Source of the DNA: Kiritimatiellia bacterium
GTDB taxonomy: Bacteria; Verrucomicrobiota; Kiritimatiellia; SLAD01
Assembly (NCBI GenBank): GCA_007134735.1
Contig: SLKG01000004.1
Coordinates: 504 to 64,503, forward strand
Length of the DNA stretch: 64,000 bases
Direction: 5' to 3'
This document shows, piece by piece, positions 371 to 30,261 of the stretch. The stretch's first letter is position 1. Each line of letters begins with the position of its first letter. The notes under the pieces were generated by a model, which searched no databases, was not told the DNA's origin, and was given only the letters and a program-made list of their open reading frames with translations. The position numbers were made by a program, and so were the translations under genes.

Positions 371-1395
371 ATCCGGAAACAACCAGAAAACTCATCAATC
401 CGAAGGCCTCCGCAACGCGTACGGTATCCATTGTCGGCACGGGGAGTTATCTTCCCGAGCGCGTATTGACCAATAAGGAACTGGAGACCCTGGTCGATAC
501 CAGCGACGACTGGATTTATACCCGTACGGGAATCCGGGAGCGGCGTATCGCGGCTCCCGACGAGGCGACATCGGACATGGCTTCCCATGCCGCGCGGAAG
601 GCCCTGGAGATGGCGGGCATCGAGCCGGGTGACGTGGATATGATTATCGTAGCGACGTGCACCCCCGACATGTTCTTTCCCAGCACGGCCTGTTTTGTGC
701 AGAAACAGATCGGGGCGTCCAAGGCGTTTTGCCTGGATGTTTCCGCCGCCTGTTCCGGTTTCCTCTACGCATTGGAGGTGGCGCATCAATTCGTCGCCTC
801 CCAGAGCGCCCACACGGCGCTGGTGATCGGCGCCGAGAAAATGAGTTCGGTGATCGACTGGCAGGATCGGACCACGTGCGTACTGTTCGGCGACGGCGCC
901 GGCGCCGCGGTCCTCCAGGCGCGGGAAGAACCGCACGGCATCCTGACGACGGTGCTGGGCGCCAACGGGAACCTGAGTGATTTATTGTCCATACCGGGTG
1001 GAGGGAGCCGGTTGCCCTACTCGCCGGAAACGCTTGATAAACGGATGAACTATCTGAAAATGGCCGGACGTGAAGTCTTCAAGCACGCCGTGACCAATAT
1101 GTCCAACGCGGTCCTCGAGGCCCTCAAGCAATGCGGCGCGACCGTGGATGATGTGGCCTGTATTATACCGCATCAGGCCAATGCCCGCATCATCCAGGCC
1201 ATCGGTCAGCGAATGAACGCGCCGATGGAAAAGTTCTATATCAATGTGCATAAGTACGGAAATACCTCGGCGGCTTCGACCATCGTTGCGTTGGATGAGG
1301 CCGTACGCTCGGGCCGGGTCCAAAAGGAGGACCTGATCCTGATGGTGGTATTCGGAGGCGGGTTCACCTGGGCGGCCAGCCTGGTGGAGTGGTAG
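367..1395 (+). CDS. fabH: 3-oxoacyl-ACP synthase III (KAS III)
   Basis: 342 aa. Active-site context is LDVSAACSGFLYAL. Also present are IIPHQANARII and HKYGNTSAASI-type motifs and the C-terminal GGGFTWAA. Fab-cluster context supports the call. Confidence 0.93.
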   Translation: MNPETTRKLINPKASATRTVSIVGTGSYLPERVLTNKELETLVDTSDDWIYTRTGIRERRIAAPDEATSDMASHAARKALEMAGIEPGDVDMIIVATCTPDMFFPSTACFVQKQIGASKAFCLDVSAACSGFLYALEVAHQFVASQSAHTALVIGAEKMSSVIDWQDRTTCVLFGDGAGAAVLQAREEPHGILTTVLGANGNLSDLLSIPGGGSRLPYSPETLDKRMNYLKMAGREVFKHAVTNMSNAVLEALKQCGATVDDVACIIPHQANARIIQAIGQRMNAPMEKFYINVHKYGNTSAASTIVALDEAVRSGRVQKEDLILMVVFGGGFTWAASLVEW

Positions 1396-1412
1396 GGGAG
1401 GGAGGAAGTGTT

Positions 1413-1461
1413 CAGTAATCAGTATTCAGTAAGCAGTATTCAGTATTCAGTAATCAGTTAA
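1413..1461. repeat. heptanucleotide tandem repeat (CAGTAWK x7) in the fabH-fabD spacer
   Basis: Read directly: cagtaat cagtatt cagtaag cagtatt cagtatt cagtaat cagttaa, contiguous with no spacer. Confidence 0.9.
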
Positions 1462-1509
1462 AGCGTGGAACATACGAAACACGGAACACTGAAACAGCGG
1501 GACAATGAG

Positions 1510-2448
1510 ATGAACAAGAGAGCGATACTATTTCCAGGTCAGGGCGCCCAGCAGGTCGGAATGGGGCGCGATTTGGCGGAGCGTGATCCGGAATGCCGGG
1601 CGGTCTTTGATGCCGCGTCCGCGGTGCTGGGATATGATCTGGCCCGGGTTTGCTTTGACGGCCCGCAAGAGGAGTTGACCCGTTCCGATCATGCACAGCC
1701 GGCCATTTTCACGGTCAGCGTCGCGGCGTATACGGCGCTGCGCCGGGCCGCGCCGGGTCGGACCTTTGAAGCGGCGGCGGGCCTGAGTTCCGGTGAATGG
1801 ACGGCTCTTCATGTGGCCGGGGCCTTGTCGTTTGAGGACACCCTCCGGGTGTTGGAGGCGCGGGGCCGATTCATGCAGAAGGCGTGCACAGAAACCCGTG
1901 GCGCGATGTTGAGCGTTATCGGCCTTGCCCCGGATCAGCTGGAGCGCATCTGCCGGAACGCGGATGTCGAAGTGGCCAATCTTAACTCACCGGAACAGAC
2001 CGTATTGTCCGGGCCTGCGGAACATATTGAGAAAGCGGAAGCGTTGGCCGGGGAAGCGGGCGCCAAACGGGCCTTGCGCCTAAATGTGGCCGGCGCGTTT
2101 CACTCGCGCCTCATGGAATCGGCCGCGCGTCAATTGGGGGAATTTCTCGAAACGGTCGCTATTTCCGATCCGGAAATGACCGTGGTATCGAATGTGACCG
2201 GTACCCCGTTTGAATCGGCGGACGATATCCGGCGGCTCATGGTGGAGCAGGTGCGTCAGTCGGTCCGATGGGTGGACGGCATTCGCTGGATGCAGGCGGC
2301 CGGAATCAATGAATATGTGGAATGCGGTCCCGGCAAGGTATTGGCGGGACTTGTTAAGCGTATTGACAAGCAGGCCGCCATACATAACATACAGGATCAT
2401 TCTGGACTTGAGCGGACGCTCGCTCAATGGGATACACAGGAGGCGTAA
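1510..2448 (+). CDS. fabD: malonyl CoA-ACP transacylase
   Basis: The ORF contains [19 protein letters not shown] and the GLSSGEW active-site serine motif. I place the start at the internal ATG at 1510 ([12 protein letters not shown]), matching the usual FabD N-terminus. Confidence 0.92.
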
Positions 2449-2455
2449 ACGGATT

Positions 2456-3199
2456 ATGGGTGAATTTGACGGAAAAGTTGTGCTGGTGACCGGTGCGGCA
2501 AGAGGGATCGGGCAGGCGATAGCCGTGGGGTTGGCCCGTGAAGGCGCGGATGTAGCCCTGTGCGACCTGCAAAAGGATTGGTTGTCCGAAACGGCGGACC
2601 AAGTGCACAAAGCGGGTTGCCGCGCGGAATGTTACGACATGAATGTGGCGGATGCTTCCAGTGTTCAAGAGGGAATCGCCGCCGTCGAGAAGGATTTCGG
2701 ACGAATCGACGTGTTGGTCAATAATGCGGGTATTACGAAGGACAATCTGCTGATTCGGATGTCCGAAAACGATTGGGACGACGTGCTCGATATCAATTTG
2801 AAAGGGGCCTTTTTGACCACGAAGGCCGTAGCTCGCCTGATGATAAAACAGCGCTCCGGGGCCATTGTGAACGTCGCCTCGATTATAGGATTGATCGGAA
2901 ATCCGGGACAGTGTAACTATTCCGCCTCCAAAGCCGGGATCATTGCGCTGACGAAATCGTGCGCCAAGGAGCTGGCTTCCCGGAATATCCGGGTAAACGC
3001 CGTGGCGCCGGGGTTCATCAAAACGAAGATGACCGATGCGCTGTCGGAAGACATTCAAAAGAAGATGCTGGACGGCATCCCTCTGAAACGGTTTGGGGAG
3101 CCCGAGGATGTGGCGAACGTGGTCAAGTTCCTGGCCGGTGATGGAGCCGGCTATGTATCGGGTCAGGTACTGACGGTATGTGGTGGTATGGTAACGTAA
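2456..3199 (+). CDS. fabG: 3-oxoacyl-ACP reductase (SDR family)
   Basis: The protein starts [22 protein letters not shown] (TGxxxGIG NAD(P)-binding motif). It also has NNAGI, the YSASKAG catalytic Tyr/Lys motif, and the C-terminal [10 protein letters not shown]. The upstream part of the track ORF (2210-2455) overlaps fabD and is discounted. Confidence 0.92.
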
Positions 3200-4175: not shown

Positions 4176-4756
4176 GGAAGCGTTCCGAATAAGAGAATGC
4201 CTTCGCGCTCCACGCGGCGCCAGAGCGCATTATATTTGTCCTGGTTCACAATATTGGTGTCCAGCAGGATCGGGTCGATGGAGACCGCGTATCGCCGCCA
4301 TATCGCTTCGTGCAACTTCTCCAGGCTGTTGAACGCCCGTACGCGGTTTCGGCCCGTGGCGAACACAAGGGTGAGTTCGATCCGGTCGCTGGCGGCGCTT
4401 TCATCCCGGGCGAGAGGGCCGGTTGCCACGGCGGCGATCGGGCGGGGATGCACGTTGCGGCGAACGGTCTTCCGGAAATCGTCCCAAAACAGGTCTTCGG
4501 CCTCGATGGCGGGTTTCAGCGCCTTCTGGATGAAATACTGTGAACGGTTGAGCGTATACCAATGAGCGCTCGAAGTCTGCTCGCAATCAACGGCGGCCAT
4601 TTCGGAGAGATGCTCAAGAGCCAGCATGACGGCGCGATTCGAAAGGCCGGTGCGGCGCTCGATTTCCCGACCGGTCATGGGCTCTCCCGCATGGTATAAC
4701 ACGCGTAAGACCAGCAATTGACTGTACTTGGAAAAAAGAAGGTTCAATCCATGCAT
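4172..4756 (-). CDS. winged-helix DNA-binding protein with a C-terminal minimal nucleotidyltransferase-like region
   Basis: The N-terminus (VLRVLYHAGEPMTGREIERRTGLSNRAVMLALEHL) looks like a MarR/ArsR-type wHTH. The C-terminal GPLARDESAASDRIELTLVF resembles the GSxARGE..SDIDL motif of minimal NTases, with a changed acidic spacing. Its stop overlaps the maf start by 4 nt. Confidence 0.5.
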   Translation of the reverse strand: MHGLNLLFSKYSQLLVLRVLYHAGEPMTGREIERRTGLSNRAVMLALEHLSEMAAVDCEQTSSAHWYTLNRSQYFIQKALKPAIEAEDLFWDDFRKTVRRNVHPRPIAAVATGPLARDESAASDRIELTLVFATGRNRVRAFNSLEKLHEAIWRRYAVSIDPILLDTNIVNQDKYNALWRRVEREGILLFGTLP

Positions 4757-14924: not shown

Positions 14925-16415
14925 ATGAATGTCCCTGGCAACATCAAGGACAAGCTGAAGGCCCTGCCGGACAAGCCCGGCGTGTACTTCATGCGCGACC
15001 GGCACGGGAAGATCATATACGTGGGCAAGGCCGTTTCCCTGCGGGATCGCGTACGAAGCTATTTCCGGTCCGGCACCCTGCGCAGCGCGGAACCCAAATT
15101 ACGCGGTCTGATTCGCAGTATCCACGATCTCGATTACCTCGTCCTTCGGAATGACGCGGAAGCCACGTTGACCGAAGGACGGCTGATCAAGGAATACCGG
15201 CCGCGGTACAATATTCTATTTCGCGACGACAAACGGTTTCTGCTTCTTCGGGTGAACCGGAACGAGCCGTTTCCCCGCTTCACCACGTGCCGTATTCAAA
15301 AGGATGACGGGGCCACCTATTTCGGCCCCTATGCCTCATCCGCGGCGGCTCATGTGGCGCGCGAATTCGTGGAGAAGCGGTTTGGACTGCGGGTCTGCCG
15401 CCCTCGCGTACCCGGCCCGATTGACCATAAACATTGTCTGAACGATATCCTTCGTTTCTGTTCGGCTCCGTGTATTCAGAAGATTAGCCGGTCGGCATAC
15501 CGGGAGCGGGTGGAGTCGGCCTGTTCGTTTCTGCGCGGAGAGCGCCCGGAATACCTGCGTGAGGTGAGGGAGGCCATGGACGCAGCGTCCCGGAAAAATG
15601 AATACGAGCGAGCCGCCGCTTATCGCGATACGCTGTTTCTGCTTCAGGACGCGATCAAGCGGCGGATTCGAGGGACCAAGTCCTTGACGCTCAAAGCCGG
15701 GGACGCGCGCGCCGGGATACGGGATTTGCAAAAGGTGCTGGGCTTGAAGCGGGAGCCGAATATCATGGAAGCCTACGATATATCCAATATTTCCGGCACA
15801 CACGCCGTGGGCAGCATGGTGTGCGCGGTTGACGGTATGCCGCAGCGCTCACGGTATCGCCTGTTTCGCATACGAACCGTGGAAGGATCGGATGATCCGG
15901 GCATGATGGGGGAAGTGATCCGGCGTCGGTTTGAACGCTTGATCAAGGAGAAAGGGAAGCCTCCGGATCTCGTCATATTGGATGGGGGCATCACGCAATT
16001 GCGGGCGGCGCGTCGGGTGCTGGATGAGCAGAGACTGGAAAACGTGCCGGCCATCGGCCTGGCCAAACGGTTTGAGGAAATATATCCGATGTCCATGGCC
16101 TACGGGAGTAAATCCCGGACGCCCCTGCGGCTTCCATCCGATTCCCCGGCGTTGCTGGTTTTGCAGCGCGTACGGGATGAGGCACATCGGTTTGCGCTGA
16201 CTTATCATCGCAAGCTCCGACTAAGGCGCATCCGGGAATCGCTGCTGGATGAGGTGCCCGGCATCGGGGATAAACGAAAACAGTTGATCCTTTCACATTT
16301 CGGGTCCATTACCCGATTGCGGCGCGCATCGGAGGAAGAGATCGCGCGTGTTCACGGTGTCGGACCCGTCATGGCGCGACAGATTCGGAAAGCCCTGGCG
16401 AAACCGGAAAACTGA
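14925..16415 (+). CDS. uvrC: excinuclease ABC subunit C (compact, 496 aa)
   Basis: It has an N-terminal GIY-YIG domain (PGVYFMRDRHGKIIYVGKA), a UVR-like segment (YERAAAYRDTLFLL), an endonuclease domain (MEAYDISN...LDGG) and a C-terminal HhH (VPGIGDKR...VHGVGPVMARQI). It is shorter than the roughly 600 aa typical of UvrC. Confidence 0.85.
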   Translation: MNVPGNIKDKLKALPDKPGVYFMRDRHGKIIYVGKAVSLRDRVRSYFRSGTLRSAEPKLRGLIRSIHDLDYLVLRNDAEATLTEGRLIKEYRPRYNILFRDDKRFLLLRVNRNEPFPRFTTCRIQKDDGATYFGPYASSAAAHVAREFVEKRFGLRVCRPRVPGPIDHKHCLNDILRFCSAPCIQKISRSAYRERVESACSFLRGERPEYLREVREAMDAASRKNEYERAAAYRDTLFLLQDAIKRRIRGTKSLTLKAGDARAGIRDLQKVLGLKREPNIMEAYDISNISGTHAVGSMVCAVDGMPQRSRYRLFRIRTVEGSDDPGMMGEVIRRRFERLIKEKGKPPDLVILDGGITQLRAARRVLDEQRLENVPAIGLAKRFEEIYPMSMAYGSKSRTPLRLPSDSPALLVLQRVRDEAHRFALTYHRKLRLRRIRESLLDEVPGIGDKRKQLILSHFGSITRLRRASEEEIARVHGVGPVMARQIRKALAKPEN

Positions 16416-26830: not shown

Positions 26831-27054
26831 TAGTGGGGGCGGAGCCGAAGACGGTTTCCGGCTCGGGAGCCTCGCCCTCCAACCCGATCACAACGGAAGT
26901 ATGAAGCGTGGAGGGCGAAGCTCCTGCTGAGCCGTATGCCGGGAAAATGTGAAAGACAACCACGGATCACAGGGGTAACACGGATGTGGGGAAGAGAGAG
27001 TCCGGCCATATCCCTCCAGCGAGGGGAAAGAAACGTGAATTGAGGAGACCGATT

Positions 27055-27591
27055 ATGCATGCCCATCCAAGAATTTCCGTAGGGATCGCCCTGGTATGTA
27101 TGCTGCTGGCGTGGCCGGCAGAGATGACCGAGGCTCAGCGTACGCGCCAGCACGGCTTTATCACCCCCGCGTTTGACGGTGATTGCCTGGGCTTGTTGGT
27201 TGATGCCATCCAACAGGCGCGACGGGAAGTGTTGGTGGCGACTTATTATCTGACCCATACCCGCATACAGGATGCCTTGATCACCGCCGCCAACCGGGGC
27301 GCCAACGTGAGGATAAAATACGAAGCAAGCACGGCATCGCATCAAACCATGCGACAGATTCTTGACCGGTTGGAGGAGCGGGGCATGGAAGTAACGCGCA
27401 TCAAAATGTCCCGCAGCGGCGCTTCCATGCATCATAAATTCGTCGTGATCGATCAATTACGGGTCTTCACAGGCTCCTATAATTTCACGGTGATGGCGAG
27501 CCGGCACAATTACGAAAACTGCGTGTTGATTGAGTCCCAGGCGGTGGCGCAGGATTTTGCCTCCGTGTTTGAACAGATTGTAAGCCGGTGA
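27055..27591 (+). CDS. secreted phospholipase-D-family (single HKD) Nuc-like endonuclease
   Basis: A signal peptide (MHAHPRISVGIALVCMLLAWPAEM) follows a GAGGAG site. It has one HKD motif, MHHKFVVID...GSYNFT. At about 178 aa it resembles the Nuc-type dimeric PLD nucleases. Confidence 0.7.
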   Translation: MHAHPRISVGIALVCMLLAWPAEMTEAQRTRQHGFITPAFDGDCLGLLVDAIQQARREVLVATYYLTHTRIQDALITAANRGANVRIKYEASTASHQTMRQILDRLEERGMEVTRIKMSRSGASMHHKFVVIDQLRVFTGSYNFTVMASRHNYENCVLIESQAVAQDFASVFEQIVSR

Positions 27592-27704
27592 GCGGCATAC
27601 CGGGTTGCAATCCGCCGTGGATTATGCGATGTTTTCCCGGTTCCGTTCTGGACAACGCCCCCGATATTATTAAGATTTGGGGTGTTTATTGAATATTATT
27701 TTAT

Positions 27705-27790
27705 GGCGGGATACCGAAGCGGCCAAACGGGGCAGACTGTAAATCTGTTGGATTATTCCTTCGAAGGTTCGAATCCTTCTCCCGCCACCA
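27705..27790 (+). tRNA. tRNA-Tyr (anticodon GUA), class II with long variable arm, encoded CCA
   Basis: Hand fold: acceptor GGCGGGA/TCCCGCC, anticodon stem-loop gcaga-CTGTAAA-tctgt, long variable arm, T arm GAAGG-TTCGAAT-CCTTC, discriminator A plus CCA. The 3' half closely resembles the E. coli tRNA-Tyr sequence as I recall it. Confidence 0.9.
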
Positions 27791-27796
27791 GTTATT

Positions 27797-28441
27797 ATGA
27801 ACCGGCTTGCTGATGTTCTTTCACAAATTCCGGATAGACCCGGTGTCTATGTGCTTCGGGGACGCAATGGACGTCAATACACGGGGGTCGCCAGAAACCT
27901 TCACGAACGACTTTCCGCTCATCTTGCAGGCAAGGCCACTCGCACAAAGAATCAACGCCCACTACATCTTGTGCACTGTGAAGACTCTCCGACGTATTCC
28001 GATGCCCTACAGCGCGAACAGTGTCTGAAGGCCGGGGCCGGACGGGTGTGGCTTAAGGGGTGGCAGACTGTTTCGCCGCAGGCGAACCCGCCTCCGGCGG
28101 GAAATCTGTTGGATTATTCCTTCGAAGGTTCGAATCCTTCCCCCACCACCATTCTTATGAGAAGCCTTTCCGATGTTATACCACAAATGCCTGAACTGCC
28201 CGGTGTCTACGTACTTCGAGGTATAAACGGCCGTAACTATATGGGTGCCGCACGTAATCTTCGGGAACGGTTGAAAGATCACAATGCTGGTCGGGGCAAA
28301 CGCACGAAGAATCAACGCCCTCTTGAGTTATATTACCACGAAATTACGACTAATTTCTCTGAAGCCATGGAGCGCGAGCGTTTCCTTAAGAGTGGCCAAG
28401 GCCGCCAGTGGCTCAAATTCGACAGAATCGTCTCCCCATAA
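27797..28441 (+). CDS. tandem GIY-YIG (URI-domain, COG2827/UPF0213-like) ORF; two ~94-aa modules, possibly two genes (27797-c.28078 and 28157-28441)
   Basis: Each half has GVYVLRG...Y(T/M)G, ARNL.ERL..H, RTKNQRPL and RE(Q/R).LK, i.e. a small GIY-YIG fold. The halves are 54/94 identical by hand alignment. The single open frame reads through a tRNA-Tyr 3' fragment (NLLDYSFEGSNPSPTT). Confidence 0.7.
   Translation: MNRLADVLSQIPDRPGVYVLRGRNGRQYTGVARNLHERLSAHLAGKATRTKNQRPLHLVHCEDSPTYSDALQREQCLKAGAGRVWLKGWQTVSPQANPPPAGNLLDYSFEGSNPSPTTILMRSLSDVIPQMPELPGVYVLRGINGRNYMGAARNLRERLKDHNAGRGKRTKNQRPLELYYHEITTNFSEAMERERFLKSGQGRQWLKFDRIVSP
28102..28151 (+). pseudogene. duplicated 3' half of tRNA-Tyr (anticodon-loop A36 to CCA), embedded in the GIY-YIG ORF
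   Basis: It is 48/50 identical to 27741-27790 (differences t>c and g>a in the acceptor 3' strand). No D arm or matching 5' acceptor strand lies upstream. Confidence 0.85.
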
Positions 28442-28457
28442 CCACCCCCCCCCAAAC

Positions 28458-29390
28458 ATGAGTCACACCATCAAAGGGCGATTGACGTTTGCGACTTTCT
28501 TCAAGACGTGCCTGCTGGCGGGGTTGGGTTTCTGGTTGATTGGCCTGCTGGTCACATCGGTATGGATGGTGGGCCATTTCTTATGGATCGGGGCGGATGA
28601 ACACGCGGTTCCGAGGGACGTTTCCCGGGTGTACGAAATCCTGTACTTCCTGCTTGTGTCCGCGGGTACAACGTTGGTTTGGATGTTGTCGCTCGCGATC
28701 CTGGGATATCCCCTGTACTGGTGGTTCGCGAAGATCCGGGGCGGACTAACGGTACGCGTCGTTGCGGGTGATGTCTCGGATCGGCAGGCCTTTCTGCGTT
28801 TTCTCAGACTGTGGTTTCCCTGCTTCCTGAAAGTGCTCCCGGTGGTCCTGGTGTTAAGCGGCGCCGTCGCGGCGGTCCAGGCTGTCCGTGAGATTCCCTA
28901 TTACCGGGCCGCATCCATGGTTTTGTTGACTTCCGACCTGCCCGTAGAGCGCGTCCAGGAAGTGCGGTGGGAAGAGCAGCCGAACGTAATTCTGACGCAA
29001 GTGCCTCTCATGAACAGTTCCCATATTCAGCGCGAGGCGCGAAAGCGTTTGGGGAGACCTCAAGAGGAAATCCGGGAGAAGATAAAGTCCGTTTCCGTGA
29101 ACGCGCTATGGCGCACAAGCATTATCCAGGTGACCGTGGAAGCGTATGATCCCGTTCTGGCGGCCGAGTATGCAAACGCGATAGTGGATGTGTACATGGA
29201 GTATGCGCAGGCGGACGGGGATCGACCGTTCCTCATTCAGGTGCTTCAGCGGGCGCAGCCTGCAACCGAACCCGCCTCTCCGGGGATCGTGCAGAGAATC
29301 CTCGCCGCCATGGGTATCGGCCTTTTGATCGCACTGGCTCTGTCCATTCTCTGGGCTGCGTTGCGATACCATGCCCGTCCTGCCCGCTGA
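28458..29390 (+). CDS. polytopic membrane protein with a Wzz/GumC-like (polysaccharide co-polymerase) C-terminal region
   Basis: The ATG at 28458 gives MSHTIKGRLTFATFF.... There are several N-terminal TM segments. The C-terminal part has SIIQVTVEAYDPVLAAEYANAIVDVY and a Pro-rich motif (AQPATEPASPG) followed by a terminal TM segment, as in PCP proteins. The periplasmic part is much shorter than in classic Wzz. Confidence 0.4.
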   Translation: MSHTIKGRLTFATFFKTCLLAGLGFWLIGLLVTSVWMVGHFLWIGADEHAVPRDVSRVYEILYFLLVSAGTTLVWMLSLAILGYPLYWWFAKIRGGLTVRVVAGDVSDRQAFLRFLRLWFPCFLKVLPVVLVLSGAVAAVQAVREIPYYRAASMVLLTSDLPVERVQEVRWEEQPNVILTQVPLMNSSHIQREARKRLGRPQEEIREKIKSVSVNALWRTSIIQVTVEAYDPVLAAEYANAIVDVYMEYAQADGDRPFLIQVLQRAQPATEPASPGIVQRILAAMGIGLLIALALSILWAALRYHARPAR

Positions 29391-29835
29391 TTGGAAACAC
29401 ATTCGGCGTACGTACTTGCAATCGTTATCCGTTCTCGTCGCCGCCATCGTTCACCAATTAGAAGAGGCAATCCGAAAAGAACGCAAAGACGAAGAATTGA
29501 CCACGGAGTAAGACAGAGGCGCGGAGCAGAAGAGATGAACGGATGGACAGATGGAGGAGGTAGGAATCGTTGTCGTCGTACTCGTCCTCGTTCTCGTCCT
29601 CGAAAATCGGTACAGCGTGCGATTGATCGATTAAGCAGTTCGACTAAGCGTATCCGATCAAGTGTGGGGACGAAGGGTGGCGATGAAGCGTAGGAATCGG
29701 GAGGGGCAGCGTCCCCGCTGCCCGGTACGCTGTTGGACGGTTGCTGCCGATGATCAATTGCGGTGTATGCATTCATGGTCCGCGTGGTCGCGGACCCTCC
29801 CGAAGACAGGGAATGAGCAAAGTTATCGCACAGCC

Positions 29836-29932
29836 TTCCAACAACTGGAAGAAACCCGGTATATATCCTCCAACGGTTGGAAACGGGTCCTGAAAATAGT
29901 TCCAACGATTGGGAAAGTCGGGCTAGAGAGCG
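29836..29932. repeat. three degenerate ~32-nt tandem units, each with a short palindromic core (TCCAAC-n-TTGGA)
   Basis: The cores are ttccaacaactggaa (29836), tccaacggttgga (29869) and ttccaacgattgggaa (29900). Each is followed by an (a)aac/gtc-ggg-type tail. Confidence 0.6.
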
Positions 29933-29997
29933 CTCGTACGCAATGTGCCTCTGAAAGGCATTCGTCCTCGTCCTCGTCCTCGAAAACAGGATCGCGC

Positions 29998-30132
29998 GGG
30001 AGGGGATACAGGGATGGGTGGAAACCGGCTTGTGGGTCGGAACGTGCACATCGCTGTTTCGTACCCTGTTTCTTTTCGGATTGCGAGAACGGCGACGAGA
30101 ATGGTGGACGATTATATCTTCCCTCGTAATCC
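29998..30132 (+). repeat. non-coding repeat element, copy X1 (~135 nt)
   Basis: It begins gggaggggata and ends cttccctcgtaatcc. It aligns with 30262-30401 over its whole length, with several 1-9-nt indels. Confidence 0.8.
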
Positions 30133-30261
30133 GTAATCGTCGCGCGTAATCGCGTGAGCGACGTTGTCGCAACGCGACTCACGTCGTCGCCGTTCGCGTC
30201 CATCGGTGATCCAAGATGGAACAAGAATCGAAACAGAAACCGCACGAAGTTCTTTCCTCCT

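Follow-up and report, generated by a model that had tools for sequence, protein, structure and literature searches.

A 64,000-nt stretch of a Kiritimatiellia bacterium assembly (GCA_007134735.1, contig SLKG01000004.1, forward-strand positions 504 to 64,503), called the window below, contains a tRNA-Tyr gene followed directly by two small GIY-YIG nuclease modules that are separated by a copy of the tRNA 3' part. We analyzed this locus together with its relatives in other genomes and found that it belongs to a widespread and apparently undescribed family of cassettes, in which pieces of a tRNA gene, a small GIY-YIG open reading frame (ORF), and a double hairpin occur together. The features of the locus are as follows.

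27705 to 27790, + strand: intact tRNA-Tyr(GTA) with encoded CCA (ARAGORN; Rfam RF00005, 58.2 bits)
27791 to 27796, + strand: T-rich 6-nt linker GTTATT from the CCA to the module 1 ATG (direct reading)
27797 to 28078, + strand: GIY-YIG module 1, 94 codons, C-terminal ..QTVSP (PF01541, E 1.4e-10)
27797 to 28441, + strand: 214-aa read-through ORF joining module 1 to module 2, with the hairpins and tRNA fragment translated between them (ORF listing)
28041 to 28071, + strand: tRNA-Tyr 5'-half remnant overlapping the end of module 1 (ARAGORN after in silico hairpin removal)
28072 to 28101, no strand assigned: double hairpin of 30 nt (sequence reading and family-wide motif)
28072 to 28086: hairpin 1 (HP1), TTCGCC-GCA-GGCGAA, 6 bp with a 3-nt loop
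28079 to 28081, + strand: codon 95, CAG, in the HP1 loop, replacing the TAG stop of relatives (comparison with relatives)
28087 to 28101: hairpin 2 (HP2), CCCGCC-TCC-GGCGGG, 6 bp with a 3-nt loop
28102 to 28151, + strand: copy of tRNA-Tyr positions 37 to 86, from the anticodon A to CCA (48/50 identity, 96%)
28152 to 28156, + strand: 5-nt linker TTCTT from the CCA of the fragment to the module 2 ATG (direct reading)
28157 to 28441, + strand: GIY-YIG module 2, 94 codons plus TAA (PF01541, E 6.4e-15)

The intact tRNA, the two modules, the copy of the tRNA 3' part, and the read-through ORF had been described in a first-pass annotation of the window and were all borne out; the 5'-half remnant and the double hairpin are additions to it. 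ARAGORN and Rfam agreed on the intact tRNA-Tyr, which was the sole tRNA found by ARAGORN in the whole window; the tRNA 3' part did recur at the second position, and the two ATGs could be read in the sequence 6 nt and 5 nt past the respective CCA. BLASTP returned the same 54 of 94 identical residues between the modules that had been counted by hand, and the unit period was 360-361 nt. The ORF listing likewise gave one 214-aa frame with CAG in the stop position. The TAG stop at the HP1 loop was kept in the related loci L001, L003, L004, L005, L006, L091, and L092, and CAG instead of TAG was also seen in L002. The change of TAG to CAG, combined with the 360-nt unit, lets the module 1 frame continue into module 2. 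The exact 214-aa protein and its neighborhood recurred in GCA_003559975.1, GCA_003567595.1, and a JGI soda-lake sediment contig, and an identical arrangement in three independent assemblies indicates that it is not an assembly artefact. As the annotation had also stated, no purine run of the Shine-Dalgarno type preceded either ATG (the upstream sequences are CCACCAGTTATTATG and CCACCATTCTTATG), and no integrase, transposase, or other recombinase was present among the called genes within +/-4 kb of the locus.

The final codons of module 1 (Q-T-V, CAG ACT GT.), located at 28062-28071 (GGCAGACTGT), were identical to tRNA positions 27-36 and comprise the 5' strand of the anticodon stem plus CTGT. 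The 30-nt plug behind them splits the anticodon of this pseudo-tRNA between the second and third base. After in silico removal of the 30 nt, ARAGORN at default settings called a degenerate tRNA-Tyr composed of 28041-28071 and 28102-28151, indicating that the 3' end of the ORF overlaps an almost full-length pseudo-tRNA; deletion of the hairpin units also led ARAGORN to call an extra tRNA in L001, L003, L004, and L030. The earlier proposal that the tRNA 3' half and the ORF form one unit held as far as their linkage is concerned, but the unit is bigger than proposed and adds a tRNA 5'-half remnant and a conserved double hairpin. The insertion point is the anticodon loop and not the tRNA 3' end. 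The C-terminal peptide QTVSP of the tRNA-Tyr-linked clade was fixed at the DNA level (CAGACTGT), third codon positions included.

Each half of the long ORF was assigned to the GIY-YIG superfamily. In the profile search that the first-pass annotation had suggested for checking this assignment, module 1 (41.8 bits) and module 2 (55.6 bits) both exceeded the curated PF01541 cut-off of 22.6 bits. Among 35 family members including both modules, G16-V17-Y18, Y28-x-G30, R38, H42, and E62 were invariant or nearly so and E74 was nearly invariant; both window modules kept every family-invariant residue, and catalytic roles may be assigned to these residues by analogy with UvrC. The AlphaFold model of module 2 (pLDDT 89) showed a GIY-YIG fold, and its top structural matches in the PDB were the UvrC N-terminal domain and UPF0213 proteins (probability 1.0, TM about 0.6). 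The PDB matches included 1ywl (E 3.9e-8), 1zg2 (E 8.9e-7), 1yd6, and 1ycz, with E values taken from the profile search. The 94 aa correspond to the catalytic domain alone, and no extra DNA-binding domain was evident. No NCBIfam equivalog was matched at its cut-off, the UvrC and DEDD-exonuclease matches being below threshold. The ratio of nonsynonymous to synonymous substitution (dN/dS) was 0.08-0.26 wherever it could be computed, indicating that the ORFs are under purifying selection. The genuine uvrC of this genome, whose product has GIY-YIG, UVR, UvrC RNase H-like, and HhH domains, was located at 14925-16415 (+ strand) of the window, showing that the mini GIY-YIG modules are additional to the repair enzyme. 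A defense or toxin function was rejected, the PADLOC matches to PDC-S14 being at noise level (E about 1e-3), and so was a phage origin, given that no PHROG matched at E <= 1e-3 and that a single viral contig held a relative.

Searching with module 2 yielded 46 close relatives of 93-94 aa, mainly metagenomic and in some cases labeled Kiritimatiellia; P0001-P0006 were 68-72% identical to it. A profile search of 1.84 billion cluster representatives gave 9,570 matches at E <= 1e-3 and 744 at E <= 1e-10, most of which were stand-alone proteins of 80-130 aa. A survey with one genome per GTDB species then provided 345 loci; the counts given below were taken from the best 80 of these 345, which represent more than 15 phyla. 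An intact tRNA on the same strand lay beside the ORF, or was parted from it only by further units, in 69/80 loci at a distance of 0-380 nt, and the nearest tRNA was on the opposite strand in none of the 80. Assuming about 45 tRNA genes per genome, we estimate that such adjacency would be expected by chance in about 1% of loci. The related loci support the positional link between ORF and tRNA that the first-pass annotation had suspected. The isotypes adjoining the ORFs were Tyr-GTA, Leu-TAA, Asn-GTT, Pro-GGG, Ser, Gln, Lys, Ala, Met, and Ile.

To locate tRNA halves, each tRNA was compared with its own locus by short-word BLAST. The ORFs were flanked upstream by tRNA 5' halves (position 1 to 34-36) and downstream by 3' halves (from 35-37 to the tRNA end), and multiple copies of the halves were frequent. 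With A and B denoting the two tRNA parts, and a and b what little is left of each in a remnant, the full arrangement A-hairpins-b-(ORF)-[A B]-(ORF)-a-hairpins-B was found in L013, L018, L022, L031, L072, and L109. A partial form with the intact tRNA first, [A B]-ORF-a-hairpins-B, was found in the window, L001-L006, and L091, and a partial form with the intact tRNA last, A-hairpins-b-ORF-[A B], in most Leu-TAA and Gln loci. One uninterrupted tRNA was kept in every informative locus. The spacing of 4-6 nt between CCA and ATG was conserved in the Tyr clade (L001, L002, L003, L005, L091, L103, and L114); in other clades, the ORF followed the hairpins and lay 5' of the tRNA. Pseudo-tRNA and ORF formed regular tandem arrays with periods of 334 nt in L024, 380 nt in L042, and 322 nt in L010, and the number of units differed between genomes.

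The linkage was also visible when the ORF was disregarded. A scan of metagenomes for the DNA pattern of the Tyr junction found 23 loci, 19 of them informative, and all 19 had an intact tRNA-Tyr next door; nine carried a GIY-YIG ORF and ten were ORF-less scars with the layout A(1-36)-hairpins-AAATCTGCT, 20-40 AT-rich nt, and intact tRNA. Degraded ORFs were found as well (in L001 the second ORF, in L004 the first). Two GIY-YIG stretches or hairpin-translated tails (..SPQASPPPAGNL..) occurred among P0125, P0128, P0072, P0077, P0010, P0030, and P0038, with P0125 and P0128 as examples of two-domain fusions beyond the window. These fused and hairpin-tailed proteins imply that stop loss followed by fusion recurs in tandem arrays. 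The sole relative on a viral contig was L090 (IMG/VR, 25-329), whose ORF is followed by an 85-nt tRNA-Cys call (ARAGORN) containing a TCCGCC-GCA-GGCGGA hairpin; this call is probably a hairpin-interrupted tRNA copy.

The double hairpin also occurs outside the window and is composed of a 15-nt unit. This unit has the consensus TCCGCC-NNN-GGCGGA, with a nearly invariant inner GCC/GGC and three varying outer pairs, and was present in 72/80 loci. Within 450 nt of the ORFs we counted 189 perfect units, equal to 2.24/kb against 0.069/kb elsewhere in the loci (about 32-fold). When double units were picked only by their inner GCC..GGC, so that the outer pairs were unbiased, 55 distinct instances were obtained, in which the six outer pairs were 98.8% paired, compared with 30-47% in slid controls. 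Double-sided changes in the outer pairs numbered 84 against 21 +/- 3.4 after shuffling, and none of 500 shuffles reached this value. The six varying pairs comprise 330 cells, and G.U was found in 2 of them. The first hairpin loop was purine-rich (RRA) and the second pyrimidine-rich (TYY), so that the two units form a head-to-head dyad that reads alike on both strands. The near absence of G.U pairs together with this symmetry suggests a palindrome acting at the DNA level rather than an RNA motif. Within a locus, loop 2 was the exact reverse complement of loop 1 no more often than expected (77 versus 71.6 +/- 5.4 shuffled).

All 55 double hairpins were located at or near a loop of a tRNA copy. 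Anticodon loops were broken at 34|35 or 35|36, as in CTGT|AAAT (Tyr) and ACTT|AAAA (Leu), and T loops at GGTTC|GAATCC; in both loops, the insertions were central, precise, and without target-site duplication. The D-loop group, in or beside that loop, was less exact; L073 was broken inside the D stem, and no position could be assigned to a few flanks. One hairpin pair, in L063, was inserted into the loop of another hairpin. The left and right junctions of L013, L031, and L072 carried hairpins identical within each locus, loops included. Additional D-loop units, some of them expanded or nested with 3-4 units or a 20-nt period, were observed in the pseudo-tRNA copies of L100 and L110 (in their upstream A copies), L064 (2866-2924), and L063 (2908-2969), which suggests local multiplication or movement of the unit.

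In a neighbor-joining tree of 82 modules, the clades followed tRNA identity and not host phylum. The Pro-GGG clade comprised Candidate Phyla Radiation (CPR) and gammaproteobacterial metagenome-assembled genomes (MAGs), the Ala-GGC clade Planctomycetales and Omnitrophica, and the Gln-TTG clade Saccharibacteria and Gammaproteobacteria. The clade with T-loop hairpins spanned Lys, Gln, Asn, and Tyr genes, while the anticodon-loop clades stayed with one tRNA; because the T loop is shared by all tRNAs, this spread over isotypes is as expected if the loop sequence is recognized. In the window itself, module 1 was 73% identical to P0043 and module 2 was 72% identical to P0006, as against 57% to each other, which places module 1 in the lineage of P0043 and L091 and module 2 in that of P0005, P0006, L001, and L003. 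Synonymous sites between the window modules were saturated (proportion of synonymous differences, pS, 0.76), and the tRNA parts preceding them were 96% identical.

The resident tRNA-Tyr has the acceptor stem GGCGGGA/TCCCGCC, an allele found identically in the relatives L004 and L084, whereas the fragment before module 2 has CCCCACC as its acceptor strand. TCCCGCC precedes module 1 and the L091 ORF, and CCCCACC precedes module 2 and the ORFs of L001, L002, L003, L005, L103, and L114, so the acceptor allele of the tRNA end is co-inherited with the ORF lineage, not with the host. CCCCACC cannot pair with the GGCGGGA of the host, indicating that the fragment came with module 2 from a lineage with GGTGGGG/CCCCACC. 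The T arm of the fragment resembles that of the resident tRNA-Tyr. The duplication of the unit in place, which the first-pass annotation had offered beside homing, was not upheld: the modules are old, separate lineages, and a recent tandem duplication was rejected in view of the saturated synonymous sites, the closer outside relatives, and the foreign acceptor allele.

Taken together, we consider it probable, though well short of certain, that the locus represents two generations of a selfish homing-type cassette residing inside the transcription unit of a tRNA gene. The cassette consists of the tRNA-Tyr 3' part (third anticodon base to CCA), a 4-6 nt linker, the 94-aa GIY-YIG gene, and the 30-nt double hairpin; it sits in the anticodon loop of its cognate tRNA, and the last codons of its gene are the tRNA 5'-half remnant. 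The tRNA part carried by the cassette restores one intact tRNA, and the displaced part persists downstream as a pseudo-tRNA with hairpins interrupting its anticodon loop. The suggestion in the first-pass annotation of a tRNA-gene-targeting selfish unit gained strong comparative support from the tRNA halves, the clades, and the acceptor alleles, and two properties of free-standing homing endonuclease genes (HEGs) were found here, namely a phylogeny decoupled from the host with recurrent invasion and the co-conversion of flanking DNA. In this scheme, the nuclease would break a cassette-free tRNA gene at the center of the loop, and recombinational repair from a cassette-bearing copy, with the tRNA halves serving as portable homology arms, would copy the cassette in without target-site duplication and in any genomic context that holds the tRNA. 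Viable products would keep one intact tRNA, presumably because the cassette supplies the missing part, and repeated cutting and repair could produce the tandem arrays and the ORF-less scars. In the window, module 2 may have arrived first, bringing a tRNA 3' part with the foreign CCCCACC allele, and its distal junction would have decayed later. Module 1 would have followed from a lineage sharing the tRNA allele of the host, at the same anticodon position and with its hairpin junction still intact, and the subsequent loss of its TAG stop would have created the 214-aa fusion. Transcription of the two modules probably starts at the promoter of the tRNA. The hairpins could block re-cleavage of the pseudo-site, or could be a binding or cleavage site of the nuclease.

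Several points weigh against this interpretation, which rests throughout on comparative sequence analysis. A 94-aa catalytic domain without an evident DNA-binding domain leaves recognition of a tRNA-loop sequence unexplained. An intact and presumably cleavable tRNA always accompanies the cassette, and the immunity usual for HEG alleles is not evident; in the pseudo-tRNA copies, the hairpins fall precisely on the break point, with the unchanged intact tRNA always alongside. Simple homing, moreover, does not require the hairpins to be conserved, palindromic, and arranged as a dyad. The first-pass annotation had also proposed comparing orthologous tRNA-Tyr loci for the presence of modules, and the outcome was mixed. 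L084, a soda-lake MAG with proB-glgB-PLD synteny, had the same tRNA-Tyr allele and no cassette, its convergent gene ending 6 nt past the tRNA-Tyr CCA, and unit number varied in the family as described above; the three assemblies with the exact locus, on the other hand, were identical. L084 belongs to another genus and has a rearranged neighborhood; its empty site does not amount to a polymorphism between strains. Among the relatives, of which L084, traced by its PLD neighbor, was the sole informative one, no empty site at the strain level was found; the P0197 contigs lacked a tRNA. Finally, the taxonomic labels of many MAGs may be unreliable, which somewhat weakens the cross-phylum argument.

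A further possibility, which we regard as tentative and rather doubtful, is that the 15-nt unit, usually present as a head-to-head pair, is the cis-acting or mobile core of a new DNA insertion system whose minimal GIY-YIG nuclease reads short stem-loops by structure. Its targets would be D, anticodon, and T loops that tRNA genes expose when single-stranded or extruded, and a second hairpin's loop as well, as in L063. The loop would be opened at or near its apex and the palindromic module installed there, leaving the tRNA halves, arrays, and ORF-less scars as consequences. Such a mechanism, if true, would differ from those of homing endonucleases, transposases, and integrases.

Alternatively, the nuclease could act purely locally, a resident enzyme nicking or cutting the neighboring tRNA gene and causing recombination-dependent segmental amplification without transfer between genomes, with the arrays as by-products. 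SegB-dependent tandem amplification of tRNA-Tyr together with segB has been shown experimentally (PMC13096335), and both the regular arrays of L024 (334 nt), L042 (380 nt), and L010 (322 nt) and the ORF-less repeats that directly adjoin an intact tRNA are in keeping with such a process. However, the window modules are far more diverged from each other than from proteins of other genomes, the tRNA fragment of module 2 carries an acceptor allele foreign to the host lineage, and the clades cross phylum boundaries. Local amplification probably contributes to the arrays and is probably not the whole story; as the full explanation, we think it unlikely. Replication slippage that duplicated the tRNA and ORF in tandem, followed by divergence of the ORF while gene conversion kept the tRNA fragment alike, would account for the regular 360-361 nt period, and the match of the fragment T arm to the resident tRNA does suggest some conversion. 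This scenario is nevertheless extremely improbable, since synonymous sites between the modules are saturated, both modules are closer to proteins from other samples than to each other, the fragment carries the acceptor strand of the module 2 lineage and not of the host, and neither the hairpin insertion nor the family-wide pattern is explained by it.

Integrases offer another route, in which the units would be mini integrative elements moved in trans by a tyrosine integrase, with the anticodon stem-loop as attachment (att) site, the tRNA 3' halves as attR-type repeats, and the GIY-YIG gene as cargo. Repeats of a tRNA 3' part that begin in the anticodon loop are generally regarded as the classical integrase signature, and in L092, L094, and L097 an island bearing a tyrosine integrase adjoins the same tRNA-Tyr and lies immediately 5' of an identical cassette. 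In a comparison of L092 (about 1371-3000) with L093 and L095, from about tRNA position 30 on, L092 was the same as L095 over a stretch covering the tRNA 3' half, ORF, hairpins, and fragment, with island DNA before it, as was also the case in L094 and L097. This junction indicates that integrases and GIY-YIG cassettes use the same anticodon-loop site, and the island keeps the proposal of an integrase acting in trans alive, at a low probability. What speaks against it is that no recombinase was present within +/-4 kb here or in most of the gene tables seen, that the units are just 330-380 nt long, and that many lineages duplicate the tRNA 5' half (A-hairpins-ORF-tRNA), which is unusual for integrase systems. 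With hairpins placed exactly at the crossover position, no att core would be left either; T and D loops hold some of the hairpin sites, and the nuclease is the only gene consistently linked to the repeats. We find it very unlikely, in turn, that the system is domesticated and works at the RNA level, with the nuclease acting on tRNA or its precursors and the plugged pseudo-tRNA serving as an uncleavable decoy or as an RNA resembling an antitoxin, much like the repeat of a type III toxin-antitoxin system, or as a tRNA-like processing signal that releases the ORF mRNA. The purifying selection on the ORFs would suit this proposal, as would the position of most hairpins in loops, where a cloverleaf is still possible and ARAGORN calls a tRNA again after their removal, and the start of Tyr-clade ORFs 4-6 nt past the CCA with no separate promoter-like site found. 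Yet GIY-YIG domains are generally known as DNA nucleases, the 2/330 G.U pairs and the strand-symmetric head-to-head layout fit a DNA palindrome better, and the pseudo-tRNAs are cut off at variable points, many being unfoldable as tRNA. The degraded ORFs and the scars without an ORF are in keeping with a selfish gene's life cycle, and no defense or toxin model was matched above noise.

Among known systems, the SegB endonucleases of phages T4 and T6 are the closest functional analogue. T4 SegB is a GIY-YIG endonuclease that recognizes a motif in the T-psi-C stem-loop of the tRNA and homes together with flanking tRNA DNA (PMC2330249); in T6, SegB brings about recombination-dependent tandem amplification of tRNA-Tyr and segB, and SegB homologues are enriched beside tRNAs of many isotypes (PMC13096335). 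SegB shares with the cassettes its GIY-YIG nuclease domain and its tie to tRNA genes. It is, however, a phage protein with a described 27-bp site, whereas the window proteins have 94 aa and no evident DNA-binding domain; the cassettes are chromosomal in many bacterial phyla, with only one viral contig found, and SegB loci have not been reported with tRNA halves broken at the loop center or with a conserved hairpin module. Membership in the Seg type, defined by GIY-YIG plus a C-terminal DNA-binding region, was rejected on size, domains, and sequence (no PHROG).

The closest architectural analogue is found in the HEG insertions of fungal mitochondria. As summarized in one report (PMC4019555), those in Allomyces macrogynus atp6, Phlebia radiata atp6 and cox2, and Ophiostoma rps3 carry a replacement gene end, and the likeness to the cassettes lies in an imported 3' end that becomes functional, an endonuclease ORF, and a resident end displaced as a pseudo-copy. 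The fungal insertions differ in having protein-coding organelle targets, full-size endonucleases, and no tRNA; the cassettes, for their part, occur in both polarities, replacing a 3' or a 5' half, and have a hairpin module at the junction. Double-hairpin elements (DHEs) of Allomyces mitochondria, which are short, fold into two adjacent hairpins, and are reportedly mobile (Paquin et al. 2000, cited in PMC3787672), resemble the plug as portrayed in the literature and not by a sequence match. The cassette hairpins are 2 x 15 nt with a conserved GCC/GGC core and are confined to tRNA-copy loops beside GIY-YIG ORFs.

By sequence and fold, the best matches are the stand-alone GIY-YIG proteins of the UPF0213/YhbQ type (COG2827), of unassigned function, and the UvrC N-terminal domain, with the same size and a single domain; UvrC as a whole is a multidomain repair enzyme. 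Integrase islands in tRNA genes resemble the cassettes in the repeat of a tRNA 3' part from the anticodon loop and in the restoration of an intact tRNA by element DNA; the cassettes depart from them in having no recombinase, units of about 360 nt, 5'-half duplications in sister clades, and hairpins at the crossover. Classification as an integrase-type island was rejected, no tyrosine or serine recombinase being found among the genes within +/-4 kb. We would classify the cassette as a tRNA-linked free-standing GIY-YIG homing gene whose hairpin component could be something new. In the full-text literature searched, a coverage that leaves out most subscription journals, neither bacterial cassettes that combine a stand-alone GIY-YIG gene with tRNA halves interrupted by hairpins nor the hairpin module itself were found described.

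If this interpretation is correct, these would be the smallest self-propagating nuclease cassettes yet described (about 360 nt), colonizing tRNA genes across phyla that include Kiritimatiellia, Lentisphaerae, Verrucomicrobia, CPR/Patescibacteria, Chloroflexi, Planctomycetes, Nitrospirae, and others. Many annotations of isolated "tRNA fragments" and of a small "GIY-YIG family protein" would be accounted for, and carrying a spare part would be seen to allow a selfish gene to target a gene that is essential and single-copy. The SegB principle would be extended from phages to cellular chromosomes, and the dyad hairpin at the break point might show by what means a nuclease domain of 94 aa locates a specific site, a question relevant to GIY-YIG enzymology and possibly to compact nuclease tools. 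Because the cassettes would share the anticodon-loop site of integrases, they might also affect the integration of islands.

Other identities of the pseudo-tRNA and its plug were tried and rejected. A stable tRNA-like fold of 28040-28156 obtained a weak z-score of just -1.8. The match to an intrinsic terminator after module 1, at 28093-28113, consisted of HP2 paired with the anticodon region and had no real T-run. A genome-wide repeat of the repetitive extragenic palindromic (REP) kind was dismissed since the window has 7 occurrences of CGCC-N3-GGCG where 5.2 are expected, of which just the two at the locus belong to the feature. A permissive Rfam scan of 27000-29000 gave tRNA as the only RNA family; a match to a plastid 3' untranslated region model in the same scan was an antisense-tRNA artefact. 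A group I intron in the tRNA anticodon loop was likewise rejected, as the tRNA is contiguous, the insert has 30 nt, and the Rfam scan gave tRNA only.

Two further features lie at the edges of the locus.

27649 to 27699, + strand: two overlapping sigma-70-like promoter matches just 5' of the tRNA (consensus match only)
28423 to 28453, + strand: decayed 3' junction of module 2, CAGAATCGTCTCCCCATAA followed by CCACCCCCCCCC (compared with the intact junctions of relatives)

The sigma-70 consensus scan found 3 sites where 0.8 were expected, and the pair at 27649-27699 was the sole promoter-like signal on the + strand before the tRNA and both ORFs. The decayed junction would be a remnant of CAGACTGT, the HP1 5' arm, and an ATAG loop, and lacks the remaining hairpin portion and the tRNA 3' half. 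Nothing more of such a junction is left after module 2, and the next gene begins 16 nt later. The neighboring genes were, in order, a proB-like gene, glgB, a PLD-family gene, the cassette, two genes without a Pfam match, and an ABC transporter. In L084, about four palindromes of ~15 nt (TTCCAAYSRTTGGAA) were observed at 4580-4700, between the PLD gene and the gene that follows it, and have no relation to the hairpin motif. The region directly after the cassette in the window (28458-30172) contained a 310-aa ORF without a Pfam match, overlapped by a 308-aa ORF on the opposite strand, and low-complexity short repeats at 29572-29602 and 29962-29982.

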